Below are positions 1-32,000 of a stretch of DNA of 32,000 bases, one piece after another (position 1 is the stretch's first letter; each line of letters starts with the position of its first letter). Under the pieces are notes generated by a model. It was not told where the DNA came from and searched no databases. It saw nothing but the letters and a program-made list of their open reading frames with translations. This stretch comes from Candidatus Saccharimonadota bacterium (GTDB lineage: Archaea > Nanohalarchaeota > Nanosalinia > Nanosalinales > Nanosalinaceae), in assembly GCF_047555085.1 (NCBI RefSeq), contig NZ_CP180230.1, positions 1 to 32,000 on the forward strand, given 5' to 3'. Both the position numbers and the translations under genes were made by a program.

Positions 1-22
1 GATCTGGAGTGGTGGTTTTGAC

Positions 23-49
23 CTACCACCCCCTGATTTCACGTGGAAC
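23..49 (-). promoter_or_regulatory. ORB-like origin recognition box (reverse orientation)
   Basis: The reverse complement reads GTTCCACGTGAAATCAGGGGGTGGTAG. It matches the box at 154-180 at 21 of 27 positions. The TTCCAC..GAAA dyad plus GGGGGTGG G-string resemble published archaeal ORB elements. Confidence 0.7.
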
Positions 50-73
50 AGAGTTTCTGAGCGGGAAATTCTG

Positions 74-130
74 ATTATAACAGTAGTATACTATTATTAC
101 AATATTATATTATAATAACAGTGTTATATC
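74..130. other. AT-rich candidate duplex unwinding element
   Basis: The sequence ATTATAACAGTAGTATACTATTATTACAATATTATATTATAATAACAGTGTTATATC is almost devoid of G/C runs and lies exactly between the inverted ORB-like boxes. Confidence 0.6.
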
Positions 131-152
131 TTTGTCTTTGGACTCTCGGACT

Positions 153-180
153 ATTTCCACTCGAAATAAGGGGGTGGGGG
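153..180 (+). promoter_or_regulatory. ORB-like origin recognition box (forward orientation)
   Basis: The sequence is ATTTCCACTCGAAATAAGGGGGTGGGGG. The dyad end faces the AT-rich region and the G-string is distal, mirroring box 23-49. Confidence 0.7.
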
Positions 181-332
181 TGTACCGGACCTTGATTTCA
201 GGTGAAAAAGGATTATAAACCTTGGTTTCGAGTAGAAGTTTACAGATGTCTTCGACTAAAAATAATTCCAGGTTTGAATCGGTCAGCGGGGAGCTGTCTG
301 GTTCGTTTCTGTTTCGGGGGGTGCTGTAGTTT

Positions 333-1541
333 ATGGCTCAGGGGGATCTGAAGTCGATGTTTTCGAACTACCTGGAACAGGATTCAGTCTTCAAAAACAA
401 GGATGCTCTTACTCCGCACTACAAGCCGGATGAGATACTGCACAGGGATCAACAGATCGATGATCTGGCTTCGATCCTGGCTCCGGCACTGAAGGGTAAC
501 GATCCAAGTAATGTTTTTCTGTACGGTTCTGTAGGAACAGGGAAATCGCTTATCGTAAAACATGTTACAGAAGAGTTGAAGACCGTAGCCACCAACGAAC
601 AGGTAGATCTGAATATACTGTATATTAACTGCAAGATGAAGAAAGTCGCCGATACAGAGTACCGCTTACTGGCAAAGCTTGCTGAACAGCTGGGAGAAGA
701 CGTTCCGAGCACAGGCCTTGCCACAGAAGAGATATACAACCGTTTCTTCGAGGCCCTGCAGGATATGACAGGCGTTGTCATCATCGCACTGGATGAGATA
801 GATGCGCTTGTCAAGAAAGTCGGAGACGAGTTCCTTTACAATCTTACAAGGATCAACGATGATCTAGAGGATACAAAAGTTTCTATACTTGGAATTTCGA
901 ACGATCTGAACTTTACAGAGTATATGGATTCGCGTGTCAAGTCCTCGCTTTCAGAGGAGGAGATTATCTTCCCGCCGTACAATGCTCTGGAGCTCAGAGA
1001 GATATTGAAGGCTAGAACAGATGAGGCCTTTGTGGAGGAGGCCTTGAAGGATGGTGTTATCTCGAAGTGTTCGGCATTGGCGGCTCACGAGCACGGGGAT
1101 GCCCGTAGAGCTCTGGATCTTCTGCGTGTTGCAGGAGAACTGGCTGAGAGAAGTGAGAAAGAGCTTGTGGCCAAGGAGCATGTGGATATGGCTCAGGACA
1201 AGATCGAGCGTGATCGTGTTGTCGAGACTGTGAAACAGCAGCCAAAGCAGTCGAAGATCGTGCTTTACACTATTCTTGATATGATCGAGGATACTGAGGA
1301 GGAGATCGCTACAGGAGATGTCTATTCGCGTTACAAAGAACTGTGCAGCGATCTGGATGTATCAGAGCTTACTCAGAGAAGGGTTTCAGGCCTTATCAGT
1401 GAGCTGGATATGCTTGGTGTTATCAACGCCAAGGTCATAAGCAAGGGTCGTTACGGCCGTACCAGACAGATAAGTGTTGACTTATCTCAAAATATCAGGG
1501 AGCAGATAGAACAGCTTGTTGAAGACAAGTTCTATCTGTAG
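333..1541 (+). CDS. orc1: Orc1/Cdc6 replication initiator (AAA+ ATPase with winged-helix C-terminus)
   Basis: 402-aa ORF. It has Walker A GSVGTGKS, Walker B IIALDEID and the N-terminal LTPHYKPDEILHRDQQ pattern typical of archaeal Orc1/Cdc6. It lies adjacent to the ORB/DUE region. Confidence 0.95.
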   Translation: MAQGDLKSMFSNYLEQDSVFKNKDALTPHYKPDEILHRDQQIDDLASILAPALKGNDPSNVFLYGSVGTGKSLIVKHVTEELKTVATNEQVDLNILYINCKMKKVADTEYRLLAKLAEQLGEDVPSTGLATEEIYNRFFEALQDMTGVVIIALDEIDALVKKVGDEFLYNLTRINDDLEDTKVSILGISNDLNFTEYMDSRVKSSLSEEEIIFPPYNALELREILKARTDEAFVEEALKDGVISKCSALAAHEHGDARRALDLLRVAGELAERSEKELVAKEHVDMAQDKIERDRVVETVKQQPKQSKIVLYTILDMIEDTEEEIATGDVYSRYKELCSDLDVSELTQRRVSGLISELDMLGVINAKVISKGRYGRTRQISVDLSQNIREQIEQLVEDKFYL

Positions 1542-1614
1542 TTTTTGTTTCAACAGGGGGTTGGATTTCAACAGTGAATAAAGGAAAGAGCAGCGATAAT
1601 AAGGGGGTATCAAG

Positions 1615-4085: not shown

Positions 4086-7000
4086 AAACTGAAGAATACT
4101 TTGAAAGAATAGAAGATAAGACCGAAGAAGCATACGATGTGGCAGAAAAAGCTAGAGATCAGTCAAAGGATCCTGAGCAACGTGTTGATATTCCAGTTGC
4201 CAGAGATCTTCCTGAAAAGGCCTCAAGTCTTGTTATTGCGGCTATGTTTCCGCAGCTTGAGGATCAGGGTGTGCCTGAGAGAATCAGAGAGCTTGAAGAT
4301 GAGTACGGGAAAAACGATGAGCGTGTGGCTTTCTCTATTGCCAGAGAGATCGCTCAGGGTGATTTCCATGAGTTCGATGAACTTGAAAAGGCCTGTAATG
4401 CAGGTATCCGTGTAGGAGTATCTTACATGACAGGAGGGATTACTACAGCTCCTCTGGAAGGTATTGGAGATATCAAGATACGTGAAAATAATGATGGCTC
4501 CCAGTACATCGCGATGTACTACTCAGGGCCTATCAGATCCGCTGGAGGAACAGCATCTGCTATGAGTGTGCTGCTTGCTGATTACGTTCGTAAAGGTGTT
4601 GACCTGGATCCGTTCGATCCGTCGGAAACTGTGGTGAAGAGGTATGGTGCGGAGGTTGAAGACTACTACAACCGTGTGACGGCCAAGCAGTACAATCCAA
4701 CGCGCGAGGAGACAGAGATGATCGCAAGCAATGTTCCTGTCGAGGTCACGGGATCTCCTACAGAGTCCCTGGAGGTTTCCAACTACAAGGATCTGGATAG
4801 GGTTGATACCAATCAGATCCGTGGAGGAATGTGCCTCGTTTATCTTGACGGTCTGCCGTTGAAGGCCTCAAAGATCAAGAAGAGGATCGAGAAATGGGGT
4901 GAGGACTTCGGACTGGAGCACTGGGAATGGGTGGAAGAGTACCTTCAGCTCCAGAAAGATATCCACTCTGATGGAGGAGATGAGGACTCAGAGGAAGACG
5001 AGGACAAAGCGAAGCATACACCTAGCGACAAGTATCTTGGATCTCTTACCGCAGGAAGGCCTGTATTTGCACATCCGGGGAGAAAAGGAGGATTCAGGCT
5101 TAGATACGGTCACTCGAGGACTAACGGCCTTGCAGCAGTCTCATTCCATCCTGCAACGATGGAAATAACAGAGAGATTCATCTCTACAGGTACGCAGTTG
5201 AAGACGGAGTATCCCATGAAGGGAACTGTTGGAACTCCCTGCGACTCTATTCATCCGCCAGTAGTTCGTCTTGAGAGCGGCGAAGTAAGAAAAGTCGATA
5301 CTCGTGAAGAAGCCAAGGAGATCGAAGACGATGTAGATGAGATTCTTTTCCTCGGCGATATGCTTGTAGCTTTCGGAGAGTTCATAGAGAACGGTAAAAA
5401 ACTGATTCCATCACCGTACGTGTCAGAGTGGTGGGAGAAAGAGCTTGAGAAAGAGCTTGAAGAACAGGACGTCAAACTGGGCCGCGACTTTACAGACAGA
5501 GATCCAACGCCAGAAGAGGCCTTCAAGATCTCAGAGGTACTGGATATACCGCTGCATCCGAAATGGACGCATCACTGGAGAGAAACATCTCCGAAGAAAT
5601 TCAAGGCCCTTTACAGCGATCTCAGAGACGGAAAAGTGGAAAGCCCAAAGGCGAAGAAAGCGCTTGAAGATATACTTGCAGAGTACAGGATCGAAGATGG
5701 AGAGGCCAGAATAAAGGAAGAGCAGCTGAAGACGATTAAGGAGCTGCTTGACTTGGAGAACAATCACAGCGAAAAAGTAGATTCGATAGAGGCCTCTAAA
5801 GAAATACCTGAGTTTATAGAGAAGGTTTCAGGGATAGAGGTCAGGGATCAGGCACCGCACTACATCGGAGCGCGCATGGGACGGCCTGAAAAGGCCCAGA
5901 AGAGAACGCTTAATGGCAAGCCACAGCTTCTATTCCCCTGCGGCAAAGATGAAGGAGGCAGGATGAGAAATCTGTCAGAATCTTACAGGCATGAAACAGT
6001 CAACGAACAGATAGTACACAACAGATGCCCTGAATGCGGTGAGATAACACATTACTCGTTCTGCAGAAGCTGTGATGTTCCTGCCGAGCCACGCTGGTTC
6101 TGCACCAGCTGTGACGAAGAGTTCAAGGAGGCCACGGAAAAATGTGGTTCATGCGGTAATGAAAGGGTACAGAGATACAAGACCACGGATATCGATGTAG
6201 AATCGATGATGAATGATGCGCTGCAGAACGTGGATATGCCTGAGCCTCCAGAGCTACTGAAATCTTTCAGAGGTATGACATCCAAGCATAAGCACGTTGA
6301 GCCTATAGAGAAAGGCCTCTTGCGGCAGAAATACGATTTATATGTCAATAAAGATGCCACGGTAAGATACGATGCCACTGACATTCCTATGACACATTTC
6401 AAGCCTAAAGAAATCAGTGTCTCGGTTGAAAGACTGAAAGAGATCGGCTATACACACGACAAAGATGGAGAACCTCTTGAAGATGAGGATCAGGTTCTGG
6501 AGCTGAAACCACAGGACATCGTAATACCGGATTCAGAAAATACTCTTTCCGCAGCAGACTACATGATGCGTGTAGCGGACTACGTGGATGATTTGCTGGA
6601 GCAACTATATGGACTGGATTCTTTCTATGATATAGAGGATAAAGAAGATCTTGTCGGAGAGCTTGTTGTAGGCCTGGCACCTCATACATCAGGAGGGACT
6701 GTAGGCCGTATAATCGGCTTTACAAATGCGAAGGGAATCTATGCACATCCTTACTGGCATGCAGCAAAGAGAAGAAACGCTGACGGTGACGAAGATGCAA
6801 TCATGCTTATGATGGATGGGCTACTTAATTTTTCACGACAGTTCCTTCCTGATATGACAGGAGCAAGGACTATGGATGCTCCACTGATCCTTTCAACAGT
6901 ACTGAATGCAGACGAGGTTGACGATGAGGCCTGGGCTACTGAGACGGTCGACGAATATCCATTGAGTTTCTACGAGGAAACAATGGAGTACAAGAAGCCG

Positions 7001-7588
7001 TGGGAGATGGACACGGAGATAGAGATCGGTGAAGATATAGTTCACAGCGATGAACCGTTCCGACATGGATATACTCATGAGTCAGAGGATGTTGAGAACG
7101 GGCCTAACCAGTCGGAGTATGTCACGCTTGATGAGATGAGTGAGAAAACATCTGCACAGCTAGGCCTAGGCGAAAAGACCAAGGCTGTGGATGAAGATGC
7201 TGTAGCAGAGCTTCTGCTTGATAAACACTTCATACCGGATATCAAGGGAAATCTCAGAAGCTTTTCGTCTCAGAAGATGCGCTGCGTAGACTGTAACGCC
7301 AAGTTCCGGCGTGTACCGATGACAAATCAGACAATAGCACCATCAGGGAAAGAGACTGCAGAATGCCCAGAATGCGCTGCAAACCCTGATAAGACAGGAG
7401 CAGGCAAAGTTCTTCTGACCATTTCAGAAGGAACGATAAAGAAGTACATGCAGCCTTCAAAAGACATCATCGACAGTTATGAGATCTCGCCGTACAAGAG
7501 ACAGGAAGTACAGATCTTGAACAGGACGATCCAGAGTCTTTTCGGCAAATCAAACAGGCAGTCAGGCCTCAAGCAGTTTACGGGCTGA
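4082..7588 (+). CDS. polD2: DNA polymerase II (PolD) large subunit DP2
   Basis: 1168-aa ORF. Conserved DP2 blocks are present: SGPIRSAGGTA, GRPVFAHPGRKGGFRLRYGHSRTNG, GARMGRPEKA and GLAPHTSGG. There are internal Cys4 clusters (CPECG..C..C) and a C-terminal zinc module (CVDCNAKFRRVP...CPEC). No intein-like insertion is visible. Confidence 0.95.
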   Translation: MKTEEYFERIEDKTEEAYDVAEKARDQSKDPEQRVDIPVARDLPEKASSLVIAAMFPQLEDQGVPERIRELEDEYGKNDERVAFSIAREIAQGDFHEFDELEKACNAGIRVGVSYMTGGITTAPLEGIGDIKIRENNDGSQYIAMYYSGPIRSAGGTASAMSVLLADYVRKGVDLDPFDPSETVVKRYGAEVEDYYNRVTAKQYNPTREETEMIASNVPVEVTGSPTESLEVSNYKDLDRVDTNQIRGGMCLVYLDGLPLKASKIKKRIEKWGEDFGLEHWEWVEEYLQLQKDIHSDGGDEDSEEDEDKAKHTPSDKYLGSLTAGRPVFAHPGRKGGFRLRYGHSRTNGLAAVSFHPATMEITERFISTGTQLKTEYPMKGTVGTPCDSIHPPVVRLESGEVRKVDTREEAKEIEDDVDEILFLGDMLVAFGEFIENGKKLIPSPYVSEWWEKELEKELEEQDVKLGRDFTDRDPTPEEAFKISEVLDIPLHPKWTHHWRETSPKKFKALYSDLRDGKVESPKAKKALEDILAEYRIEDGEARIKEEQLKTIKELLDLENNHSEKVDSIEASKEIPEFIEKVSGIEVRDQAPHYIGARMGRPEKAQKRTLNGKPQLLFPCGKDEGGRMRNLSESYRHETVNEQIVHNRCPECGEITHYSFCRSCDVPAEPRWFCTSCDEEFKEATEKCGSCGNERVQRYKTTDIDVESMMNDALQNVDMPEPPELLKSFRGMTSKHKHVEPIEKGLLRQKYDLYVNKDATVRYDATDIPMTHFKPKEISVSVERLKEIGYTHDKDGEPLEDEDQVLELKPQDIVIPDSENTLSAADYMMRVADYVDDLLEQLYGLDSFYDIEDKEDLVGELVVGLAPHTSGGTVGRIIGFTNAKGIYAHPYWHAAKRRNADGDEDAIMLMMDGLLNFSRQFLPDMTGARTMDAPLILSTVLNADEVDDEAWATETVDEYPLSFYEETMEYKKPWEMDTEIEIGEDIVHSDEPFRHGYTHESEDVENGPNQSEYVTLDEMSEKTSAQLGLGEKTKAVDEDAVAELLLDKHFIPDIKGNLRSFSSQKMRCVDCNAKFRRVPMTNQTIAPSGKETAECPECAANPDKTGAGKVLLTISEGTIKKYMQPSKDIIDSYEISPYKRQEVQILNRTIQSLFGKSNRQSGLKQFTG

Positions 7589-8767
7589 ATCTCTTTCAAA
7601 GGCCTCTGAGATGCGTGGAATACGGGAGGCCTTATCAACTACTTCTCTATTCATTCTCTCCTCTATCTCACTTTCCTGTCTATAATCATCTATGCTGTAA
7701 TCTCTGTCGTCGAGCTTTGACTTGTGGCCGGATTCTGTTCTCTCCATTTCATTCAGCTCCTCCTCTAGATCTCTGAAGAACTCTTCTACTTTCTCAGGCC
7801 TGTAAACTTCTCTTCCAGGAGATGAAAAATCGATTTTGACGCCATAACGCTCCTGCATAAACTCTCTGAATTCTTCCAGCCTTTCCCTGTACTTTTCAGC
7901 TACAGGATAAGCGTCTTCTACAAGCATCTTTCTTGAGGCCTCGCTGTTCACATCTCTGGAGTGTTTCAGCTTCCTTGAAGCTTTCAGGCCTATTTTACGT
8001 AGATTATCAAGTTTCTCTCGAGTCTTGTCTAGGTCTCGCAACTCTTTCTCTATCTTTTTCCTCAGGTCATTCGGCACGATTCCTTCAGGCATCTTTTCAG
8101 GGTTTTCGGCTTTCATATGCCTGATGTATCTGTCCAGAGGCTCGAAGATAGGGCTTTTAGAGAAATTAGTGTCGTATACGCCCTTGATCCAGTTTTGCTG
8201 CAGATCTTCAGGCTTCCTTCTTGTTCCAAGAGGCACTTCTCTATCCACTTTAAACATCACATAATCGATCCTACTGCCGCCATCATTCACTTCCATGCTT
8301 TTACGGGAAATAAAACGCAAATCATCCGGAGAGCCGTAGATTTTTTCCAGGCCTTTATTGCTTTTTACTGCATACGTCTTCGGCTTCCCCGAAGGATTCC
8401 TGATCTCTTCTTCAGGCATTGCAACTACTTCCAGATGCTCTACAGGCACCTCAATCTTCAGTATTACATCGCGTGCGTAACTTTCCGCCGTCTCATAGTA
8501 TCCACAGAATACACCAGGCTCTGCTATAGCATGATCGCCAGAATTCACCTCGTCCTTTGTGTACTGATCTCTGTACCCGTTTTCAGCGGTGATATATCCT
8601 TTTTTCAGGACACTGATCTGTTCATGTCTTCTATCTGCTGTATACTCTTTATTGAAAAATATCTGCTCGCTGCACCCTCTGTAAATCACTGCTTTATCGT
8701 AACTGAAAGGATAATCACTTATCTCACCCTTGAGAAATTTTTCACAGTCCCAGACTCTTTCACTCAT
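7562..8767 (-). CDS. Hypothetical protein: globular N-terminal domain plus K/R/E-rich coiled-coil C-terminal half
   Basis: This 401-aa ORF is the longest in the interval. I recognise no family. The TATA-like AAGTTTATACAGG lies about 27 nt upstream of the ATG on the minus strand. The 3' end overlaps polD2 by 27 nt. Confidence 0.65.
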   Translation of the reverse strand: MSERVWDCEKFLKGEISDYPFSYDKAVIYRGCSEQIFFNKEYTADRRHEQISVLKKGYITAENGYRDQYTKDEVNSGDHAIAEPGVFCGYYETAESYARDVILKIEVPVEHLEVVAMPEEEIRNPSGKPKTYAVKSNKGLEKIYGSPDDLRFISRKSMEVNDGGSRIDYVMFKVDREVPLGTRRKPEDLQQNWIKGVYDTNFSKSPIFEPLDRYIRHMKAENPEKMPEGIVPNDLRKKIEKELRDLDKTREKLDNLRKIGLKASRKLKHSRDVNSEASRKMLVEDAYPVAEKYRERLEEFREFMQERYGVKIDFSSPGREVYRPEKVEEFFRDLEEELNEMERTESGHKSKLDDRDYSIDDYRQESEIEERMNREVVDKASRIPRISEAFERDSARKLLEA

Positions 8768-8854
8768 CTGTATACCAGTTCAACAGTATCCTGTATAAAC
8801 TTTTGGAAGGCCTTGGGCATAGCTTATTTAGGATTAGAACTGTAATTCTCTGGT

Positions 8855-9939: not shown

Positions 9940-10552
9940 GTTCGAGGAACCGCTTCAGAAGAGAAGCGACCACTTCTTTGTCAAGGAAGATCCTGTAAGA
10001 ATTTACAGAGGCCTCAGAGATATACTTGTAAACGAGTTCGATGTCGACAGGATCGAAAAAGGGAAAAACGAGTTCAATGTTTCAAAGCCGAAGGACAGGC
10101 TGCGTCTGCACGCTTTCAAGGAAAAATCAACGCACACAGTGATTCACTGGCGTCTTTCGTGGAAGGCAAAAGCACCTAAAGATATTTACAAGATGGACAG
10201 GCCTGACGATATCCTCAAGGCCCGTGTTCAGACAAGCGGGGAAGTTGTAACTGTTTATCCGGGAGCTAATTCGATGCCGGTAATCCCAAAAAAGAAGATG
10301 GAGTATCCTCAGTCCCGCATCGATAATTCAGGCCTTCAGGCCGAGGAGAAAACTGCTTTCCAGCGGTCAAAGCTTTACAAAATCATGGTAGGCATCTGGT
10401 ACAACAAGTTTTACTCAAAGGAGATCGAGAAGTACGAGGAGGAAGGAGATGAGACGATTATCCATCTTCACAACTTGATGCGTGAAAAATTCGGTGTGGA
10501 GCCGGGGATTGCCAAGACAGGGGCCTCGGAGTTCACACCGCCGTGGAGATGA
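9932..10552 (+). CDS. Hypothetical protein, second tandem paralog
   Basis: 206-aa ORF. The blocks DPVRIYRGLRDILVN and SKLYKIMVGIWYNKFYSKE...ETIIHLHNLMREKF align with the upstream gene. It is tightly coupled to both neighbours. Confidence 0.7.
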   Translation: MVKFEEPLQKRSDHFFVKEDPVRIYRGLRDILVNEFDVDRIEKGKNEFNVSKPKDRLRLHAFKEKSTHTVIHWRLSWKAKAPKDIYKMDRPDDILKARVQTSGEVVTVYPGANSMPVIPKKKMEYPQSRIDNSGLQAEEKTAFQRSKLYKIMVGIWYNKFYSKEIEKYEEEGDETIIHLHNLMREKFGVEPGIAKTGASEFTPPWR

Positions 10553-10558
10553 TGATTT

Positions 10559-13924: not shown

Positions 13925-14046
13925 TTGCCAAAGTCACCTGTAGAAAATATGGGGCAGACCTGAATAAAAATGTAGATGATGCGACCGGATGGAAACAGTA
14001 AAAATGCTTCAGCAGAAAATCCCTAATCAGAGGCCTCGAAAAACAG

Positions 14047-15825: not shown

Positions 15826-15864
15826 AGTAAAAAAGTTGAGAGGCCTTTCTCGAGGCCTGAAAAT

Positions 15865-16317: not shown

Positions 16318-16443
16318 TTTCAGTTCACAAATCCTTTTTTGATTAAATTTCTGCTGTAGATCAAAATTTTTCTGTAGAAGACAATTGTACTCGAAACATT
16401 AAAATACCTCGCAAAACAGGCCTCTGAAAAATCCGCCAAGAAG

Positions 16444-16449
16444 TTTAAA
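16444..16449 (+). promoter_or_regulatory. TATA-box-like element for LamG gene 16475
   Basis: TTTAAA, within AAGTTTAAACAC, lies about 26 nt upstream of the ATG. Confidence 0.35.
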
Positions 16450-16474
16450 CACAGGCCTCCAAAACAGAAACAGG

Positions 16475-17743: not shown

Positions 17744-17917
17744 ATTTTTCTGTAAAAAACTGTAAAATTTTCAGGCCGTGTAGAGGCCTTGAACACCGTT
17801 TTTACCACGGGTGTTGAACAAAACCTGTTTTAGAGGCCTGAATGGTACTGTTTTCTGCCTTTAACCCCCGTACCTATAAAAAAGAGGACTGACAATACCT
17901 TATTGGAGGATTTCACA

Positions 17918-22397: not shown

Positions 22398-22457
22398 AGT
22401 ACAGTTTTTTCAGGCGTTCAGTTTTATGTTTAATTTCTATCTCAGGCCTCTAAGTTT

Positions 22458-25343: not shown

Positions 25344-26099
25344 ATGCCGAAAATTTCCTGGGATAATGATGATTTCCAGAAAAGTCAGGATTCTTCAGGA
25401 ACTACTACGGAAAATATTTCCGGTGGAGGCCTTGAGCAGGGATACTTTCACGGCTCTTTAACTAGGGGCCTTGTGGTGTATTATCCGCTTGATTCCGGTT
25501 CCGGTTCTACAGCTATCGATGAAGTCATGGGGAATGATGGAACTATCAATGGTGCTTCATGGGCTTCTGGTTCAAAAATAGGGGATTCCTGTCTTGATTT
25601 CAACGGCTCTAGTGATTATCTGGCGATGCCTGAAATAGCTTTAGAGGATTCTTTCACTGTTTCCCAGTGGGTAAATCTTGATCAGGATAAAGACTGGAAT
25701 AATTCTTTCGGCTCAGAGTCAATACTTTCTATGATCTCCTACGCTGATGGCAAAATACAGTGTTATATCGGCGATGGAAATAGCTGGCAGGCAGAGACAA
25801 ATACAGGTACAGGAAAAACAAATCCCGGAAACTGGCAACACTGGCTGATAACCTACGATGGATCAACACTAAGATTCTTCCTCAACGGCGTACTAGAAGA
25901 CAAAACATCCATCTCAGTAGCCCTGCCATCTACAGTTCACCACATCGGTGCAAGAAACAATCAAACCAGCGAATACTCTCTAGACGGTAGAATAGACTCC
26001 ACAAAAGTATACCGTAGGCCTCTATCAACGCCTGAAGTACAGGCCCTATATAATCTAACTAGGCCTTCAAAAGTTTCTCCAGGTGATACTGTAGTATGA
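25344..26099 (+). CDS. Single LamG / concanavalin-like domain protein
   Basis: 251 aa. It has YYPLDSGSGSTAIDEVMGNDGTINGASW...LDFNGSSDYLAMP at the start and KVYRRPLSTPEVQALY at the end. Its stop overlaps the next start (ATGA). Confidence 0.8.
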   Translation: MPKISWDNDDFQKSQDSSGTTTENISGGGLEQGYFHGSLTRGLVVYYPLDSGSGSTAIDEVMGNDGTINGASWASGSKIGDSCLDFNGSSDYLAMPEIALEDSFTVSQWVNLDQDKDWNNSFGSESILSMISYADGKIQCYIGDGNSWQAETNTGTGKTNPGNWQHWLITYDGSTLRFFLNGVLEDKTSISVALPSTVHHIGARNNQTSEYSLDGRIDSTKVYRRPLSTPEVQALYNLTRPSKVSPGDTVV

Positions 26100-27442
26100 C
26101 AGGCCTGATCGGCTGGTGGCCTCTTCACGAAAACTCTGGAAGTACTGCGTATGATCTCTCAGGAAATGGAAATCACGGGAGTTTGAGTGGCGGTGTTACG
26201 ACGGGTGTGGCCGGTAAAGGAGGCCTGACAGGATACAGTTTTGATGGGGGTAGTGGCTTCGTTAACTGGAGTGATGGAGGTCATGTCGAGAGCAAAGCGC
26301 CTCCGGTTTCGATCTCGCTTTGGGCATATTTTCCATCTGGTAGCCAAGGTCCTTACTCTCTTTTCAGCCAGCAGGATGATGGAGGGAATACTGTTCTCGT
26401 CATGTTGGGGGATAGGGCTGGCGAGGACAAGGTGAAGTTCTCGATTTACGATGATAATGATACGTGGGTAGATCTTCCAGGCGGAAATATCGAAGAAGGA
26501 TGGATGCATATTACAGCTGTCTGGAAGCCTGACCAGACAATGCAGATATTCGTGGACGGTAAGAAAAAAGGAGAGGCTTCAACTACCGCAGGAACAGTTG
26601 ATACTTCAGATCCTATCGGAGAGCAAGTCCTAGGTATTTACGATTACGGAGGATCAAATGAGGCCTATTTCAATGGCAAAATCTCTGATGTAAGAATTTA
26701 CAACCGCGTTCTCAGCTCGGTGGAAGTCCAGCAGTTGTATGAATGGGGCAACGGAGACTATGCGAGGCCTGTAGATAGTTCTGATTCTTCTGCTGTTTCT
26801 CGCTGGAGTTTTGATGGAGATACAACGGACTCATGGGGATCGAATGATGGAACTGACAATACTTCGGCAGGCTTTGTTTCTGGAGTTAGAGGCCAGGCGA
26901 AGGCCTTTGATGGAAGCGATGATTATGTGGTTTTGCAGAGTAGTTCGGGTGTGGATGGTAAAGGCGGTCATACTATCTCCTCTTGGGTTAACCTCAATTC
27001 GGTTGATGAGGAGGACATATTTGGCAAGTGGGGGAGCGACAGTAGTAACAAATCTTACCTTTTGATGGTTTATGATCCTGGTTCTGGGCCTAATGTGCGA
27101 GGGCATGTACATGATGGAGCGAATTCATACGTTGTTGATGCTGGAGACGCTGTAAAAACCAATGGGTGGTATCATGTAGCCCAAGTATGGGATGGAAAGA
27201 AGCTCTATGTGTACACGAACGGCAGGATGTCAAATAGTATCAGTGCGGATATCAGTCTCGCAAGTTCAAGTAAAGACCCTCACATAGGCCACAGAGGCTA
27301 TAATGCTTCATCTCATCTTGATGGATCAATTGATGAAATAAGATTTTACAACCGTGCGCTTTCACCTTCAGAAGTTTTTGAACTTTACAGATGGGGGACG
27401 GGAGGCCGCGATTTGAGAAAGTTTACTGTTAATTCGAGGTAG
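26096..27442 (+). CDS. Tandem LamG / concanavalin-like domain protein (2 domains), paralog of 16475-17743
   Basis: 448 aa. The first 18 aa (MTGLIGWWPLHENSGSTA) are identical to those of the 16475 protein. The interdomain linker and C-terminus (RKFTVNSR) are near-identical, while the domain cores are divergent. Confidence 0.85.
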   Translation: MTGLIGWWPLHENSGSTAYDLSGNGNHGSLSGGVTTGVAGKGGLTGYSFDGGSGFVNWSDGGHVESKAPPVSISLWAYFPSGSQGPYSLFSQQDDGGNTVLVMLGDRAGEDKVKFSIYDDNDTWVDLPGGNIEEGWMHITAVWKPDQTMQIFVDGKKKGEASTTAGTVDTSDPIGEQVLGIYDYGGSNEAYFNGKISDVRIYNRVLSSVEVQQLYEWGNGDYARPVDSSDSSAVSRWSFDGDTTDSWGSNDGTDNTSAGFVSGVRGQAKAFDGSDDYVVLQSSSGVDGKGGHTISSWVNLNSVDEEDIFGKWGSDSSNKSYLLMVYDPGSGPNVRGHVHDGANSYVVDAGDAVKTNGWYHVAQVWDGKKLYVYTNGRMSNSISADISLASSSKDPHIGHRGYNASSHLDGSIDEIRFYNRALSPSEVFELYRWGTGGRDLRKFTVNSR

Positions 27443-27509
27443 AGGCCTGTCTTTTTGTCGCACCCTATTTAAAATTTCGTCTTCAGTGTTTGTTTACGAG
27501 GTTTTCAAA

Positions 27510-28124: not shown

Positions 28125-28499
28125 ATGAGTTTCGATGGGCCTTCTGGCAATCCACGAATCATAGATATGGATGAAGAGATGCCGGACTACGACACTATCT
28201 TGAAGGCCCAGAACACGTATGAAGAACTTCTTGAAGAACTGGAAAGATACTCTATGGCAAAGATTCAGGGCGGCGATGTACAGGAAGAGCTTGAACTTGT
28301 AAGAGACGACATAAGAGATACGAGAGCATACATCAAAGTCGAGATCGAGACTGTACAGCCTCAGGACTTTATAGTTGGAGATGATGCCGGCGAGTACGAT
28401 GAGAAGGCGGAAAGACTTTTCAGGCCTAAGGTAGATTTCCTGGAGGAACGCTTTGAATCGGCTGAAGAGTACAGAGAGCATCTTCTGGACAGGCTCTGA
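28125..28499 (+). CDS. Acidic hypothetical protein
   Basis: 124-aa ORF. A TATA-like ATTTAATT lies about 22 nt upstream, and a conserved 20-nt palindromic element directly precedes the ATG. No family recognised. Confidence 0.6.
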   Translation: MSFDGPSGNPRIIDMDEEMPDYDTILKAQNTYEELLEELERYSMAKIQGGDVQEELELVRDDIRDTRAYIKVEIETVQPQDFIVGDDAGEYDEKAERLFRPKVDFLEERFESAEEYREHLLDRL

Positions 28500-28522
28500 A
28501 TTTTCAGGGCCTGCAACCGAAG

Positions 28523-28530
28523 ATTTAATT
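28523..28530 (+). promoter_or_regulatory. TATA-box-like element for 28555 gene
   Basis: ATTTAATT lies 25 nt upstream of the ATG and is the same octamer as at 28096-28103. The spacing suggests a leaderless or near-leaderless transcript. Confidence 0.4.
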
Positions 28531-28554
28531 CACGGCTCTGAGAAATAACTGTGT

Positions 28555-30105
28555 ATGGTTGAATGGAAAGGCGATATCAGCGAGGAATCGGGTGTAAAAG
28601 CAGAGAGACTTGACAAGCTGGACGGATTTAACGTACCTAACTTCTTTGTGATAACGCCTGAAGACATCAGTGAACTTTTCAACGGAAACAAAGATTCTGA
28701 AAGAATACTTAACACTTCTATAGATCAAAGAGCTAGGGAAAACATCAAAGAGGCCTATGAAGATGTAGGCATGAGCTCGGAAGTCAGAAAGGCCTCAGGG
28801 AAAGCTAAAAGCCTTGTCGGAGGCCAGAGAAATAATCAACTTGTCTCGATCAGAGTTTCAGATTCTGGCAGAGAGAAGTATACTTACAAGCTGAATGTCG
28901 GCCTTTCAAACTTTTTCGACGCACTTAAGGAAGTCGTGTCGTCCTACTGCAGCAAGGAATCAGATTATCCGGCTATAATAGTTCAGAAAATGGTGGAGCC
29001 GGGATACACGGGAGCTCTGGAGAATCACGGCAGATTCTCTATAGTTGAAACAGTTCAGGGCCTTGGAATATCTCTTGAGGAAGGCCTTACGGAGCCATCG
29101 ACGTATGTGCTCTCTCAGGGAAGGATTGAAGATGTCTTCATGCCGGAGGAGCAGCTGGAGATCAGCAGAAATCCTGTTCATGGTGATAATCAGAGGAAAA
29201 AAGTTGAAGTCGATGAGAGGCCTTTCAAAAGCTCTGAGATCCAGTCTCTGGCGCGAAAAGCTTCACGGATGGGTGTTAATATCAAGTTTGTCTACAAGAG
29301 AGGGAGTTTCCATATCGTCGATGTCTACGAGCCTGTGAATGATGGCAGGCCTGTTATAACTGGAGAGGGCATCCGGGCCTCGAAGGGAGAGATCAAGGGG
29401 AGGGTAGGCAGGAACGTCTCCTTCAGTGATCAGACCTTGCCACCTGAAGATTTCCAGGATGCTCTTATAGCGGGGAAAGGAGGGTACACCTCTAGAGATG
29501 GATACCGGATCCGCCAGTCAGGCAAGCCAGCGATCTTCCAGTTTAATGGAGAGCTACAGCAGGGCACCAGCGTTGATGTCGGTGCAGAAGAAGTAAACAT
29601 AGAATCATCTTCTGCCTCCACTGAAAGGCCTCGTGGCAGATCTGAAGAAAGAGAAGTCAACCCGTTCAAACAGGACTCCGGCTCTGAGAAAGCTACTATT
29701 GCTTCAGAAGTCCTGCCAGTTGATCCCAGGATCGGCAAAGGGATATGCATAGACAGAAACTCCGATCAGGGATACGTGCTTACAGACAGGGAAACGTCCG
29801 CTACACGTATTCCCGAATCGGGATATGTCTCCTCCTATGAAGACTTCTTCACTTTTGAAGGCGATAGAGCGATAGTAGATACACGCTCGATCAGTGCTGA
29901 AGGCCTGGAGAGAGCTTTCGAGTACATGGAAGCCGAACTGAAAATACTTGTTATGGCGGAGCCCAGGCCTGAGATTGTAAGGCCTGCTGTACAGAACGGC
30001 TTCGAAGTTTTCGGTGTTGCCGAGGAGCATATAGAAGGCCTCTCTGAATTGCTGGCATCCGAGGAAAAAAAGTTTATCATGGATCGATTGCGGAATCTTG
30101 AGTAA
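28555..30105 (+). CDS. PEP/pyruvate-binding (ATP-grasp, PPDK_N-like) plus PEP-utilizer swivel-domain protein lacking the catalytic histidine
   Basis: 516 aa. The N-terminus GVKAERLDKLDGFNVPNFFVIT...LVSIRVS...AIIVQKMVEPGYTGAL resembles the PpsA/PPDK nucleotide-binding domain. The swivel motif reads GGYTSRDGYRIRQSGKPAIF, where canonical proteins have GGxTSHAA. No TIM-barrel PEP domain is present. Confidence 0.6.
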   Translation: MVEWKGDISEESGVKAERLDKLDGFNVPNFFVITPEDISELFNGNKDSERILNTSIDQRARENIKEAYEDVGMSSEVRKASGKAKSLVGGQRNNQLVSIRVSDSGREKYTYKLNVGLSNFFDALKEVVSSYCSKESDYPAIIVQKMVEPGYTGALENHGRFSIVETVQGLGISLEEGLTEPSTYVLSQGRIEDVFMPEEQLEISRNPVHGDNQRKKVEVDERPFKSSEIQSLARKASRMGVNIKFVYKRGSFHIVDVYEPVNDGRPVITGEGIRASKGEIKGRVGRNVSFSDQTLPPEDFQDALIAGKGGYTSRDGYRIRQSGKPAIFQFNGELQQGTSVDVGAEEVNIESSSASTERPRGRSEEREVNPFKQDSGSEKATIASEVLPVDPRIGKGICIDRNSDQGYVLTDRETSATRIPESGYVSSYEDFFTFEGDRAIVDTRSISAEGLERAFEYMEAELKILVMAEPRPEIVRPAVQNGFEVFGVAEEHIEGLSELLASEEKKFIMDRLRNLE

Positions 30106-30135
30106 CTAAAAAAGATTGCGTCTTGAGTATAGGAT

Positions 30136-31155
30136 ATGACACCAAAAAACAGCCGTGAAAAGAAAACTGAAGACCGCCAGAAATTCAACTATGAAGAGTT
30201 CGAGGAAGTTCTGGAAGAGATAAAGGAAGAAGACTATGACACGATAGGCCTTCAGGGTCCTGACGGCATAAAGCCTCAGTTGATAGATTATGCTGATCAG
30301 CTAGAGGAACATGGATTTGATACTGTTATCATCGGTGCTTCAACTTTCGGAGCCTGCGGTATCGCAGATGAAAAAGCTGAAAGAATGGGGGCAGATGCAC
30401 TGATCCATGTAGGCCATACAAGATTCCTTCATCCGGAAAGACAGGACATGGACGATCTAAACGTGTACTATCTTCCATACCGAGAAGATAGGGATCTCAT
30501 GGGAGTTCTCAGAGAGCATTACGAGGAGATTGATGCCGAAAAAGTAGGTCTTGTTGGAGTAACACAGTATATGGATAGAGCTGAAGAGGCCCGTGAATTC
30601 CTTGAAGACAAGGGATTCGAAGTTGTGGAAGGGAAGACAGGCCTCAGGACAACAGAGCCAGGACAGGTACTCGGATGCGACGCTGGAGCTGCACACAACA
30701 TTGCGCATAAAGTAGATGCCTTCGTCTTCCTCGGCAGCGGACACTTCCATCCTTCACAGGTCTCGGAGACAGGTAAGGATATCTATGTTGTAGATCCTTA
30801 TGAGGAGCACATTTGGGTAGAGCCAGCTAACTCTCTCGATGACGAGACTCGGGCCGAACACGCACGTGTAATCAAGCATAAAGACAAGAAGAAGTGGGGT
30901 ATCGTCACTTCATCCAAGAAAGGCCAGAACTATATGCAGGCGGTACAGATAGCAAAAGAAAAGCTGGAAAAACACGGCAAAGATGTATACGTTTTCGTTG
31001 AAGACAGGATTTTCGAGCCTGACTACAAAGGATTCGGTATAGATATCTACGTCAACTGTGCCTGTCCAAGAATGACAAAGGACTGGCAAGACATGGCTTT
31101 TGTCTCTCCTTCAGCTCTAGATGTTCTGAACGAAGTTGATATAGAGCACGAATAA
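30136..31155 (+). CDS. dph2: Diphthamide biosynthesis radical-SAM-type enzyme Dph2
   Basis: 339 aa. The blocks FGACGIADEKAERMGADALIHVGHT, GQVLGCD, FLGSGHFHP, WGIVTSSKKGQ and VNCACPRM correspond to conserved blocks, including the Cys ligands, of archaeal Dph2. Confidence 0.85.
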   Translation: MTPKNSREKKTEDRQKFNYEEFEEVLEEIKEEDYDTIGLQGPDGIKPQLIDYADQLEEHGFDTVIIGASTFGACGIADEKAERMGADALIHVGHTRFLHPERQDMDDLNVYYLPYREDRDLMGVLREHYEEIDAEKVGLVGVTQYMDRAEEAREFLEDKGFEVVEGKTGLRTTEPGQVLGCDAGAAHNIAHKVDAFVFLGSGHFHPSQVSETGKDIYVVDPYEEHIWVEPANSLDDETRAEHARVIKHKDKKKWGIVTSSKKGQNYMQAVQIAKEKLEKHGKDVYVFVEDRIFEPDYKGFGIDIYVNCACPRMTKDWQDMAFVSPSALDVLNEVDIEHE

Positions 31156-31213
31156 TTCTTGGTTTTCTCCAGTTTTTGGTTCAGTTATCTATCTGCCCTA
31201 ACATATAAAAAGC

Positions 31214-31233
31214 TGTTACTATGTAATAACAAC
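31214..31233 (+). promoter_or_regulatory. Conserved palindromic promoter-proximal element, copy 2
   Basis: The sequence TGTTACTATGTAATAACAAC directly abuts the ATG at 31234 and lies 3 nt downstream of the TATA-like ATATAAAA (31203-31210). Confidence 0.55.
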
Positions 31234-32000
31234 ATGACTTCTGGCGGTGTGACTCCGGAGAGCAAGAAGACGAAGTTCGGGAAGGTGCCGGATTATCATA
31301 AGGCGAGGAATGAGCTTTCTGGTGAGGATATCGGGGAGTTGGTCGATGATATTTCTGAGTATGAGGGTGATCTATATGGATCTGCTCAGGATGTTGCTAG
31401 AGCTTTCTACGAGGAAGATCCTGTCAAGTACAACAAGAATCAGATGACTGTTCGTGAGACGGCCAAGGAGAATGTTGATAAGCACAGTCAGCCAGGATGG
31501 GCCTGGGAGCTACTTTCTGTATATTCTGAAGACATGGGGAAGAAACTTCTTGATGTGCCAAGTGATGGATCTCATAAAGGCCTGCTTATAGATGAAGATT
31601 TCGAAAAAGTGTTTCTGTATGCGAAGGATGCGGATGGTATTCCTGCGGTAGAGCATGTTGACAGATGGTATGAGAACGGTATTAATGCGCAGTCTCTGGG
31701 ATATGAGCTTCCTGCGGATGAAATGGAGAGGACTGCTCTTGATATAGGCAGAAACGATGAGCTGGGAGAACCTGTTCTCATGATGAACTACAACGGCGAT
31801 ATGGTGCTTGACTCAAAAATTAACGAAATGCTGGAGGATGTCGAAGAGCAGATCCAGGACAGAAACGAATGGGTCAAAGACTCGCAGCCAGAACGCAGAC
31901 AGCACCTAGAAGGAAAAGATGTGGAAGATGTCGAGGCGTGGACAACAGGCCTCGAATTCCTGATTGAAAACGACTATATTGAAAACTGGGGTGTAGAAGA
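31234..32000 (+). CDS. Hypothetical protein, 5' part (ORF runs off the window)
   Basis: My own translation from the ATG at 31234 is open to the window end, about 255 codons (MTSGGVTPESKKTKFGKVPDYHKARNEL...). It is absent from the ORF track, presumably because there is no stop in the window. A TATA-like ATATAAAA lies 24 nt upstream, followed by the conserved 20-nt element. Confidence 0.6.
   Translation, partial: MTSGGVTPESKKTKFGKVPDYHKARNELSGEDIGELVDDISEYEGDLYGSAQDVARAFYEEDPVKYNKNQMTVRETAKENVDKHSQPGWAWELLSVYSEDMGKKLLDVPSDGSHKGLLIDEDFEKVFLYAKDADGIPAVEHVDRWYENGINAQSLGYELPADEMERTALDIGRNDELGEPVLMMNYNGDMVLDSKINEMLEDVEEQIQDRNEWVKDSQPERRQHLEGKDVEDVEAWTTGLEFLIENDYIENWGVE

Follow-up and report, generated by a model that had tools for sequence, protein, structure and literature searches.

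AGGCCT as a highly iterated palindrome of a nanohaloarchaeon, tentatively attributed to an acquired DNA enzyme system

The stretch of DNA analysed here (the window, 32,000 bases, GC 45.9%) raises the question of what has filled it with the palindrome AGGCCT, which occurs exactly 112 times. It belongs to Candidatus Nanosalina sp. VS9-1 (Nanohaloarchaeota), and AGGCCT is written into almost every protein-permitted position of this tiny salt-loving symbiotic archaeon. We tentatively read AGGCCT as a "highly iterated palindrome" of this organism, supplied by an acquired sequence-specific DNA enzyme system, and hold this reading with some reserve.

Abundance of AGGCCT and chance expectations

An earlier note on this DNA had counted about 112 copies by eye and expected 5-10 by composition; the exact count agrees, the zero-order expectation is 6.5, and all coordinates that it gave are indeed AGGCCT sites. 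One site is found per about 285 bases (3.5/kb), with a mean spacing of 281 bp, a maximum gap of 979 bp and 1-7 sites in each kb. AGGCCT ranks first among all hexamers in the window, and the runner-up palindrome, AGATCT, has 34 copies.

1..32000, no strand: dispersed array of 112 AGGCCT sites of 6 bases, starting at 713, 1024, 1039, 1388, 1862, 2093, 2388, 2711, 3486, 3533, 3641, 3929, 4218, 4389, 4863, 5057, 5517, 5790, 6313, 6670, 6927, 7162, 7564, 7600, 7627, 7796, 7936, 7986, 8349, 8808, 8965, 9276, 10009, 10199, 10330, 10926, 11466, 11807, 12550, 12670, 12961, 13632, 13653, 14031, 14289, 14421, 14714, 14850, 15068, 15222, 15458, 15841, 15853, 16418, 16453, 16597, 17010, 17096, 17734, 17784, 17834, 18309, 18447, 18972, 19078, 19257, 19293, 19466, 20155, 20389, 20581, 20972, 21248, 21448, 21752, 21973, 22350, 22444, 22829, 23192, 23300, 23488, 23923, 23992, 24126, 24214, 24595, 25095, 25427, 26016, 26061, 26101, 26221, 26661, 26765, 26901, 27443, 28422, 28751, 28790, 29082, 29218, 29347, 29626, 29901, 29965, 29980, 30036, 30246, 30639, 31578, 31947

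Shuffles that preserve dinucleotides (n=100) gave 7.28±2.65 copies, with a maximum of 14, versus the 112 observed. Synonymous-codon shuffles (n=1000), which hold protein sequences and codon usage constant, gave 14.7±3.6 (maximum 26) versus 101 observed in-gene sites. Further, an empirical null is provided by non-enriched nanohaloarchaeal relatives: in 322 kb from the same loci AGGCCT is present at 0.31/kb, versus 3.5/kb in the window.

The Markov expectation depends on the order of the model: it is 7.4 at order 1, 24 at order 2, 54 at order 3 and 110 at order 4, the maximal order. The earlier note had held that a Markov model predicting a similar count would speak against a real excess, and nominally the maximal-order model does predict one (110 vs 112). 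However, this model is circular, because about 70% of the AGGCC/GGCCT pentamers and half of the GGCC tetramers sit inside the motif; with all 112 sites masked it predicts 18, and chance is rejected by the codon-aware null as well as by the empirical one. The flanks of the sites show a weak bias only and the specification is limited to six bases, therefore the motif is not a mobile element.

Sites in genes and in spacers

In the genes of the window all three codon phases are used: 17 sites read AGG-CCT (Arg-Pro), 38 read xAG-GCC-Txx and 45 read xxA-GGC-CTx. Among the positions where the amino acids permit the motif about 69% hold it (17/24 Arg-Pro dipeptides, and 37/61 and 45/59 permissive tripeptides in the other two phases), while codon usage alone would fill about 10%. 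The three phase examples of the earlier note (713, 1024 and 5057) were correctly assigned, and its claim that the motif is not tied to one codon context holds for the window as a whole. A single favoured dipeptide or codon phase, which it had named as a possible explanation, is contradicted by this spread and by the codon shuffle. The sites at 31578 and 31947 are within an ORF that extends past the end of the window. The genic features discussed below are:

713..718, + strand: phase 2 example, xxA-GGC-CTx, Thr-Gly-Leu in Orc1/Cdc6
1024..1029, + strand: phase 1 example, xAG-GCC-Txx, Glu-Ala-Phe in Orc1/Cdc6
4389..4394, + strand: site in PolD made by a conservative Arg to Lys replacement at an otherwise conserved position (comparison with relatives)
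5057..5062, + strand: phase 0 example, AGG-CCT, Arg-Pro in the PolD large subunit
6670..6675, + strand: site in PolD with an accompanying Ile to Val replacement (comparison with relatives)
7562..8767, - strand: window-specific ORFan of 401 aa in a variable slot, with 7 AGGCCT sites (5.8/kb)

The ORFan is specific to the window and bears 7 sites, therefore lineage-specific DNA is saturated too. Noncoding DNA contains 10 sites in about 2.1 kb, i.e. about 4.7/kb, where the zero-order expectation is about 0.3 sites. All ten had been listed correctly in the earlier note:

8808..8813, no strand: non-coding site before the CBS-domain gene
14031..14036, no strand: non-coding site before the DUF63 membrane-protein gene
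15841..15858, no strand: two spacer copies (15841 and 15853), 6 nt apart, AGGCCTttctcgAGGCCT, between convergent genes
16418..16458, no strand: two non-coding copies (16418 and 16453) upstream of the LamG-domain gene
17784..17839, no strand: two non-coding copies (17784 and 17834) in the spacer of 399 nt that follows the LamG-domain gene
22444..22449, no strand: non-coding site between two nucleotidyl-transferase genes
27443..27448, no strand: non-coding site before the ribosomal protein L10e gene

Judged by inspection of the letters, the copies at 15841 and 15853 could form a 6-bp hairpin.

Comparison with nanohaloarchaeal relatives

A comparison with close relatives, as the earlier note had proposed, shows that the enrichment is lineage-specific. 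Two separate clades are enriched, with 1.3-3.5 AGGCCT/kb, and the close relatives interleaved with them have about 0.3/kb; some of these avoid GGCC altogether. Clade A consists of the window and L021, clade B of L033, L026, L024, L020 and L010, each with 100% bootstrap support. The monophyly of A and B has 0% support, and the tree places clade A among the non-enriched L001, L030 and L002. The same AGGCCT state is shared by two clades, with lineages between them that are without it. This heritable but patchy pattern fits the acquisition of a transferable gene.

In 8/8 enriched loci the codon-shuffle z-score of AGGCCT lies between 10 and 24, and all other palindromes score far lower. A second genomic region, from relatives of both enriched clades, shows the same split into enriched and non-enriched genomes. 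This and the even coverage of the 32 kb support the view that the enrichment is genome-wide.

In the relatives, orthologous positions hold synonymous near-cognates such as AGGTCT, AGGACT, AGACCT and AAGCTT. Thr-Gly-Leu at 713 is kept in 15/15 non-enriched relatives and coded AGGTTT, AGGTCT, AGGACT and similar; the conserved Arg-Pro at 5057 is AGACCT, AGACCG or CGGCCG. At 1024 most non-enriched relatives encode Lys-Gly-Phe or Lys-Ala-Phe and lack AGGCCT; in both enriched clades the peptide is x-Ala-Phe and AGGCCT is present. At 4389, 17/18 non-enriched relatives and all clade-B loci have Arg-Ala-Cys; Lys-Ala-Cys (AAG-GCC-TGx) is confined to the window and L021, its sister. In the same two genomes Val-Gly-Leu is found at 6670, where 15/18 non-enriched relatives have Ile-Gly-Leu. 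Permissive tripeptides are about 1.1-1.4x commoner than in the relatives.

At permissive positions shared with the window, clade B has an occupancy of 85-100% (L033 18/18, L026 16/17, L020 13/15), high whether the window has the site or not. This is deterministic saturation, and it implies a strong directional force at the DNA level rather than inheritance or codon bias. Enriched genomes share 47-73% of their sites, versus 17-21% for control hexamers. The maintenance at the DNA level suggested by the earlier note, as opposed to a codon or dipeptide effect, is thus strongly supported by the phases, the spacers, the occupancy, the site sharing and the close relatives without enrichment. A lineage-specific directional force on double-stranded DNA converts near-cognate hexamers to AGGCCT and retains the sites. 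It acts where the protein tolerates change, mostly synonymously, in spacers too, and occasionally by conservative replacements.

Sites in the window are more evenly spaced than random (CV 0.73, P about 0.0004); compared with random thinning of permissive sites the evenness is marginal (P=0.07), and it was not reproduced in seven other enriched loci (Stouffer z -0.78). The distance to an existing site is shorter for unoccupied permissive positions (87 bp) than for those that are occupied (136 bp; P=0.01).

Possible causes and known systems

The likeliest source of the force would be a hypothetical sequence-specific DNA enzyme system acquired by the enriched clades, and the leading candidate would be an AGGCCT-specific (StuI-type) cytosine methyltransferase, also hypothetical. 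Methylated sites would bias mismatch correction, by a putative nanohaloarchaeal pathway, or gene conversion towards the recognition sequence, and as a molecular drive this would keep adding AGGCCT until the permissive positions reach saturation; methylated AGGCCT may then also serve the cell as a mark. Such a methylase-linked bias has been proposed for the cyanobacterial HIP1 and alternate HIPs. For one nanohaloarchaeon in culture, Dcm-like methylases have been documented (PMC10266531). A search of the window and of about 250 kb of related loci turned up no methyltransferase, nuclease, Vsr-like or restriction gene.

The single-base variants bear on the type of repair. In clade A variants at the outer positions are enriched (GGGCCT/AGGCCC 5.8x), an excess that is strong in this clade only, and central variants are depleted (AGGTCT/AGACCT 0.43x). 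AGGGCT is depleted to the same degree, and in clade B AGGACT is the most depleted variant. The central depletion is therefore not specific to the product of C-to-T deamination, and a pure very-short-patch mechanism fails to explain the pattern. Copies of GGCC that lie outside AGGCCT show no enrichment. Both signatures match what Elhai reported for HIP1 and the methylase site within it, namely an excess of outer variants and an unenriched internal site (PMC4390886).

Selection for a function is a doubtful alternative, which we rate below the enzyme system. AGGCCT would be the site of a dimeric DNA-binding protein, its density kept high by natural selection. The protein might act in the nucleoid or in segregation, or AGGCCT might be a "self" tag, similar to Chi or to uptake sequences, by which symbiont DNA is told from host DNA in DNA import, nucleotide scavenging or recombination. 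The site sharing favours it, by the argument with which Xu et al. took the conservation of HIP1 sites as selection and not biased repair (PMC5861425); by analogy, the ambiguity between the two would apply to AGGCCT as well. However, the window and L020, of the other clade, share 11/23 sites, as high a fraction as within clade A (19/40), so the sharing comes from identical permissive positions having been saturated and not from conservation. Selection is further favoured by the conserved residues replaced with creation of a site, by the distances to existing sites and by the even spacing, although the latter is weakened by the seven other loci and the test against random thinning. Recent preprints tie HIP1 to transformation and DNA transfer. 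Sampled replicons of haloarchaea, the host group, have 0.04-0.44 AGGCCT/kb, 8-90-fold below the window, so the motif would discriminate symbiont from host DNA; this scarcity fits a self/non-self reading rather than proving it. Against selection, a 6-bp tag discriminates weakly, and several thousand such sites in a symbiont genome of roughly 1 Mb would demand an implausibly large total selective effort.

The other readings are less probable still. A drive by uptake or recombination, in which a postulated machine prefers AGGCCT fragments and motif alleles replace motif-less ones without benefit to the cell, is improbable. Drives of this type have been modelled for the Haemophilus USS and the Neisseria DUS, and nanohaloarchaea, as cell-contact symbionts, would have opportunities for DNA exchange. 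It would account for the occupied phases and spacers, the saturation, the modest reshaping of peptides and the inverted pair at 15841/15853 between convergent genes, as for DUS, but known uptake sequences have 9-12 bases and are non-palindromic, and a 6-mer gives little specificity. The genes seen in the window include none for competence or uptake. Very improbable is a function in RNA, with AGGCCU in transcripts selected as, e.g., a nuclease, modification or pairing site. Here 102/112 sites are in genes and, because the palindrome is self-complementary, AGGCCU is in every transcript regardless of gene strand; however, spacers are at least as dense as genes, no positional preference within genes is seen and no Rfam family matches. 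Further, exact palindromy is the hallmark of duplex DNA read by a symmetric dimer, while a single-stranded RNA signal needs no self-complementarity. Hardly any weight is left for a by-product of composition, of preferred codon pairs or dipeptides, or of a repeat element that spreads. The order-4 Markov expectation and acidic proteomes rich in Gly-Leu, Glu-Ala and Arg-Pro would favour it, but the former is circular, three phases and the spacers are occupied, relatives that have these proteins, codon habits and GC content in common with the window remain at about 0.3/kb, and a conserved flank beyond six bases is absent; the codon shuffle and the empirical null refute it.

Among known systems, Dcm/Vsr very-short-patch repair at CCWGG in enterobacteria joins a cytosine methylase to a T:G-to-C:G corrector, a combination that makes the methylated palindrome commoner and its deamination product rarer. 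In archaea the T/G glycosylase Mig.MthI is linked to the GGCC methylase M.MthTI. The depletion of AGGTCT/AGACCT in clade A is alike, but the effect in E. coli is modest while AGGCCT is enriched about 10-fold and reaches saturation, the depletion extends beyond the T-containing variant, and the available sequence yielded no gene for Vsr, Mig or a methylase. Restriction targets are normally avoided, not accumulated. StuI-type restriction-modification has the same recognition sequence: in Alcanivorax borkumensis SK2 an active system methylates essentially all 1674 AGGCCT sites (PMC12128166), so enzymes reading exactly this hexamer exist. The density there is about 0.5/kb, unlike here. Like AGGCCT, USS/DUS and Chi are over-represented oligomers found across genes in several frames; they are kept by a DNA-processing machine and mark "own" DNA. 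Unlike AGGCCT, they have 8-12 bases, are non-palindromic and orientation-dependent, occur about once per 1-5 kb, and their machinery is known, while that for AGGCCT is hypothetical.

The closest known phenomenon is HIP1 (GCGATCGC) of cyanobacteria, with the alternate HIPs of exceptional strains (GGCGCC, GCCGGC, GCSGC) (PMC4390886, PMC5861425). AGGCCT differs in having 6 bases rather than 8 and another sequence, and in its presence in DPANN archaea, while the abundance of HIP1 is stated to be confined to cyanobacteria; as far as we could find, no highly iterated palindrome has been reported from archaea before. The HIP-methylase link is defined by cognate methyltransferases, of which none was found for AGGCCT in the sequence searched. 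HIP1 has a periodicity of 10-90 kb, and the AGGCCT window spans 32 kb, with a short-range evenness that is not reproducible across other enriched loci. In the remaining features the two are alike: both palindromes are short and GC-rich, reach densities of up to about 1 per 300-350 nt, exceed expectation by a factor of 15 or more and lie in all reading frames and intergenic DNA. Both have sites common to related genomes, one-base variants that cluster at the two end positions, an internal shorter site that is unenriched alone, and sporadic, lineage-specific replacement or absence among relatives.

Abundance, reading frame and setting of AGGCCT in the window

AGGCCT has exactly 112 copies in the 32,000 bases of the window (45.9% GC), more than any other of the 4096 hexamers. 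The earlier note had arrived at about 112 copies by eye; the exact count agrees, and the motif is present at every position that it had named. The second palindromic hexamer, AGATCT, has 34 copies. From base composition alone 6.5 copies of AGGCCT are expected, corresponding to a 17-fold excess, and 100 dinucleotide-preserving shuffles gave 7.28±2.65 copies with a maximum of 14.

Markov models of order 1, 2 and 3 expect 7.4, 24 and 54 copies, and the maximal-order model (order 4) expects 110. Such an agreement with a maximal-order model had earlier been regarded as an argument against a genuine excess. Formally the agreement exists, but this null is circular, because the words AGGCC, GGCCT and GGCC lie largely inside AGGCCT itself (112 of 162, 112 of 152 and 112 of 223 copies, respectively); once the motif sites are masked, the same formula gives 18. 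In its place we used shuffles that preserve dinucleotides or permute synonymous codons, together with a comparison to relatives as an empirical null. The synonymous-codon shuffle leaves each protein and the overall codon usage unchanged. Across all genes it gave 14.7±3.6 copies (1000 shuffles, maximum 26), to be compared with 101 observed. A compositional artefact behind the abundance is ruled out by the codon-aware and empirical nulls.

Within the list of 30 genes, 17 sites are read as AGG-CCT (Arg-Pro), 38 as xAG-GCC-Txx and 45 as xxA-GGC-CTx. Ten further sites are located in spacers, and those at 31578 and 31947 are outside the gene list but within an open reading frame that runs past the end of the window. 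The motif is therefore not tied to a single codon context, as had been claimed: all three phases and the spacers hold it. Genes with intact reading frames contain 102 of the 112 sites in total. The density is 3.4 sites per kb in coding DNA and about 4.7 per kb in spacers; in the latter, at 41% GC, the zero-order expectation is about 0.3 sites.

A position is here called permissive if the encoded amino acids allow AGGCCT, and occupied if AGGCCT is actually there. Occupied are 17 of the 24 Arg-Pro positions, 37 of the 61 (Lys/Gln/Glu)-Ala-(Phe/Leu/Ser/Tyr/Cys/Trp) positions and 45 of the 59 x-Gly-Leu positions. Overall the occupancy is 69%, while codon usage would give about 10%. Across whole loci it is 0.33-0.80 in enriched loci and 0.01-0.22 in the other loci. 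Codon or dipeptide preference as the cause of the excess is rejected by the codon phases, the codon shuffle and the occupancy in relatives. Further, the six bases alone are specified, the flanks being only weakly biased (a preceding T and a following A are disfavoured). This weak bias and the predominance of sites in genes exclude a longer consensus, a mobile element or a dispersed repeat of the REP or MITE type.

At 15841-15858 two copies lie 6 nt apart between the convergent genes of a ROK kinase and an HTH regulator; judged from the sequence, this self-complementary pair could form a small hairpin. Other paired spacer copies are found at 16418/16453 and 17784/17834. The window contains no tRNA or Rfam features. 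Its genes are as follows.

Genes of the window
Encoded in the window: Orc1/Cdc6, both PolD subunits, a HAD hydrolase, a CBS protein, a Toprim protein, a ROK kinase
Also encoded in the window: phosphoglucomutase, several sugar-nucleotidyl transferases, ribosomal protein L10e
7562-8767 (minus strand): ORFan of 401 aa, no family match, less acidic than its neighbours
16475-17743, 25344-26099 and 26096-27442: three LamG/concanavalin-like (Laminin_G_3) proteins
30136-31155: Dph2

The ORFan fills a variable slot that has the PolD large-subunit gene on one side and the CBS-domain gene on the other. In the sister locus L021 the same slot holds an unrelated 309-aa gene on the opposite strand (10093-11022). 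Lineage-specific as it is, the ORFan still holds 7 AGGCCT sites. LamG-domain proteins are typical surface proteins of nanohaloarchaea, and the order and number of their genes differ between the window and its relatives L160 and L161. The close relatives of the PolD large subunit are all from Nanohaloarchaeota (70-87% identity). In L026 (4313-9268, 1651 aa), L007, L010, L013 and L020 the gene of this subunit is about 1.4-1.5 kb longer, with an insertion in the catalytic region that has LAGLIDADG-like, intein-like features; the PolD of the window is without it. The window is not from Ca. Nanohalococcus SVXNc, for which a methylome is published: it contains 30 GDGCHC sites, against 140 in the whole SVXNc genome.

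Distribution among nanohaloarchaeal relatives

The count of AGGCCT covers 37 polD loci, drawn from species-representative genomes as well as metagenomes, together with nine dph2 loci. The enriched loci are listed below. The remaining nanohaloarchaea, referred to as non-enriched, have 0-1.0 sites per kb, or 0.31 per kb when pooled over 322 kb, and a high density in spacers is restricted to the enriched loci.

Density of AGGCCT in the enriched loci (sites per kb)
Window (clade A): 3.5
L021 (clade A): 2.3
L033 (clade B): 3.45
L026 (clade B): 3.1
L024 (clade B): 2.2
L020 (clade B): 3.55
L010 (clade B): 1.3
L159: 3.0
L160: 2.1
L036: 1.8
L172: 2.75

After L021, the nearest relatives of the window are non-enriched, namely L001 (83% PolD identity), L030 (82%), L002 (80%) and L158 (93% Dph2 identity). 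In a neighbour-joining tree of Orc1 and PolD (200 bootstraps) clade A and clade B each have 100% support, but the two together have 0%. Clade A groups with the non-enriched L001 and L030 in 87% of the bootstraps, and with L001, L030 and L002 in 100%. The enrichment therefore arose at least twice, or once with at least three losses.

In all eight enriched loci tested, the codon-shuffle z-score of AGGCCT is 10-24. When all 64 palindromic hexamers were tested in every locus, no other one exceeded 6.6. This value belongs to AAGCTT in L013 (JACOQA010000002.1; 25 copies, 8.4 expected by codon shuffle), while TCCGGA in L002 (23 copies, 10 expected; L002/L022) has a z-score of 4.4. These two may be weak "alternate" iterated palindromes.

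How sites arise, are shared and vary

At orthologous positions the non-enriched relatives use AGGTCT, AGGACT, AGACCT, AAGCTT, CGGTCT and other near-cognate hexamers for the same amino acids. We classed the 28 sites in conserved genes of the window against the consensus peptide of the relatives. Seventeen of them agree with the consensus, so the change is purely synonymous there, and 9 are at variable residues. The other 2 override a conserved PolD residue (Arg to Lys at 4389-4394, Ile to Val at 6670-6675). Both replacements complete an AGGCCT and are common to the window and L021; mild purifying selection has apparently given way to the motif here. Permissive peptides are about 1.1-1.4 times commoner than in relatives. 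The proteome is nudged by AGGCCT, not rewritten.

Between enriched genomes, 47-73% of the aligned AGGCCT sites are shared, compared with 17-21% for any hexamer at about 75% nucleotide identity, and between enriched and non-enriched genomes 9-12%. Sharing across the clades (11 of 23, window and L020) is as high as inside clade A (19 of 40), and therefore it may reflect convergence. At positions permissive in both genomes the occupancy in clade B is 85-100% regardless of the state of the window (L033 18 of 18, L026 16 of 17, L020 13 of 15). A near-deterministic saturation of the same positions, and not inheritance, would thus account for the sharing.

The single-base variants were measured relative to their frequency in non-enriched relatives.

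Frequency of one-base variants of AGGCCT relative to non-enriched relatives (clade A; clade B)
Outer variant GGGCCT/AGGCCC: 5.8x; 1.4x
Other two outer variant pairs: 1.5-1.7x; 0.9-1.3x
Central variant AGGTCT/AGACCT: 0.43x; 0.80x
Central variant AGGGCT: 0.40x; 0.73x
Central variant AGGACT: 1.14x; 0.56x

The bias towards outer positions is thus 1.5-5.8x in clade A and weak, 0.9-1.4x, in clade B. GGCC without the AGG half-site is not enriched (0-2x, mostly below 1x). The excess of AGGCCC/GGGCCT in clade A suggests either decay by transitions at the outer positions or a half-site (AGGCC) component of the force. GGGCCC is absent from clade A despite this 5.8-fold excess.

GGCC itself is scarce in several non-enriched lineages: 6 copies in 21 kb of L170 (GCA_022729235.1, 1-20987), where about 64 are expected and AGGCCT is missing, 8 in 21 kb of L171 (JACOQA010000001.1), 7 in 21 kb of L029 and none in 6.7 kb of L032. 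L023 is another non-enriched nanohaloarchaeon with strong GGCC avoidance. Such avoidance is a classical signature of GGCC-specific restriction, the opposite of what is seen in the window. Sites containing GGCC appear to be under strong, opposed pressures in different lineages of Nanohaloarchaeota.

The sites of the window are spaced more evenly than chance would have it (CV 0.73, compared with 0.97±0.09 at random; P about 0.0004), with a largest gap of 979 bp. Unoccupied permissive positions are 87 bp from the nearest existing site and occupied ones 136 bp (P = 0.01). However, the permissive positions alone have a CV of 0.86, random thinning of them gives P = 0.07, and across the seven other enriched loci the effect is not consistent (Stouffer z -0.78). 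A regular spacing is unproven, and 32 kb is too short for a periodicity on the 10-90 kb scale.

Candidate mechanisms and comparison with known systems

A directional force that acts at the DNA level, is specific for the hexamer and is specific for the lineage saturates the genome with AGGCCT. The maintenance at the DNA level proposed in the earlier note is strongly supported, since neither chance nor codon bias accounts for the excess, and neither does a peptide motif or a repeat element.

Among the open reading frames of the window, no DNA methylase, restriction enzyme, nuclease, Vsr or defence family was found with Pfam, NCBIfam or PADLOC. A motif-regex scan and a C5-methylase HMM, applied to six-frame open reading frames of all loci, gave no match in any nanohaloarchaeal locus; an apparent PCQ/ENV match in L026 is a glycosyltransferase-like fragment. 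We also searched a protein database for a nanohaloarchaeal GGCC or AGGCCT methylase with M.HaeIII, whose sequence was checked against PDB; all of the 120 matches listed are close homologues from bacteria. AGGCCT-specific methylation systems do exist: nearly all of the 1674 AGGCCT sites of Alcanivorax borkumensis are methylated (PMC12128166), and Dcm-like methylases occur in one cultivated nanohaloarchaeon (PMC10266531, PMC11001535). The literature library searched gave no report of AGGCCT hyper-abundance in nanohaloarchaea or in any prokaryotic genome.

Haloarchaea are the group that hosts nanohaloarchaea. In 300 kb from replicons of five haloarchaea (L163-L168) the density is 0.04 sites per kb in Haloferax volcanii pHV4 (4 in 100 kb, about 32 expected), 0.10 in Halomicrobium pHmuk01, 0.12 in Haloarcula pNG700, 0.10 in Halobacterium pNRC200 and 0.44 in Halorubrum lacusprofundi pHLAC01. 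The window is 8-90-fold denser than these. In the first four replicons the motif is 3-8-fold under-represented, and in pHLAC01 it is about as frequent as expected. The gap between host and symbiont agrees with a discriminating mark, but GC-rich codon usage in the hosts may be enough to explain it. A scan of viral contigs for AGGCCT clusters gave mostly tandem repeats and chance matches, and no nanohaloarchaeal virus was recognised among them. Two related phage-like contigs, non-halophilic and with 36% GC, have dispersed AGGCCT, at 3.6 per kb in L038 (IMG/VR 3300029432_000018) and 1.6 per kb in L107 (3300045988_144701); the scan favours local clusters, and the sample is biased. AGGCCT hyper-abundance may exist in unrelated organisms too.

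What, then, is the force? Our tentative preference is for a molecular drive: an acquired DNA modification and repair activity specific for AGGCCT would act in the manner proposed for HIP sequences, the highly iterated palindromes of cyanobacteria. The main rival, possible though somewhat unlikely, is that selection acts directly to keep a mark, methylated or bound by a protein, which serves the nucleoid or segregation or is a Chi-like or uptake-like self tag. The two are compatible and not separable on these data. An uptake-type drive seems improbable; the DNA uptake sequences (USS/DUS) are 9-12 bases long, non-palindromic and oriented, unlike AGGCCT with its six bases and exact palindrome. 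We give very little credence to a role at the RNA level, and a compositional artefact is next to inconceivable.

A bolder reading, which we consider unlikely, makes AGGCCT the archaeal equivalent of HIP1, with two or more origins in Nanohaloarchaeota and the role of a dense "self" tag, probably a methylated one. By means of it the episymbiont would distinguish its own chromosome from host haloarchaeal DNA, and protect it, during DNA import, degradation or recombination via cell-cell contact. If true, DPANN archaea would have a novel type of genome-wide self-marking.

Hyper-abundant palindromes have so far been regarded as a cyanobacterial peculiarity, and 30 years on, biased repair and selection still compete as explanations of their cause. 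The nanohaloarchaea offer an independent DPANN system with a different motif, a tiny genome and at least two origins flanked by close relatives without the trait. They form a natural comparative experiment, in which gene content compared with motif density should point to the responsible enzyme. Further, AGGCCT distorts codon usage and some protein residues, and it offers a very strong k-mer signature to use in binning. Its degree of "amelioration" could also serve to date horizontally acquired DNA, and the motif could show how an obligate symbiont separates its own DNA from that of the host.

Compared with known systems, AGGCCT differs from a restriction-modification target in being 17-fold over-represented, not under-represented. 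As to the signature of Dcm/Vsr very-short-patch repair, the T-containing neighbour (AGGTCT/AGACCT) is depleted, but so are AGGGCT in both clades and AGGACT in clade B; simple repair of this type seems insufficient, because the depletion is not confined to the product of C-to-T deamination. As for HIP, the palindrome exceeds composition- and codon-aware nulls by an order of magnitude, occurs in every reading frame as well as between genes, and is aligned between related genomes above control motifs. In HIP1, which has the internal methylase site CGATCG, deviants cluster at the first and last positions and the inner core is not enriched alone (Elhai, PMC4390886). Likewise, one-base deviants of AGGCCT are at outer positions, weakly so in clade B, and the GGCC core alone is not enriched. 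Sequence, length and domain of life differ from HIP1 proper (GCGATCGC, cyanobacteria), the motif here being AGGCCT in a nanohaloarchaeon. The link that defines the HIP class is one to a cognate methyltransferase, and for AGGCCT no methylase gene was found in the window or in the related loci. AGGCCT behaves like a highly iterated palindrome and has most of the properties tested.
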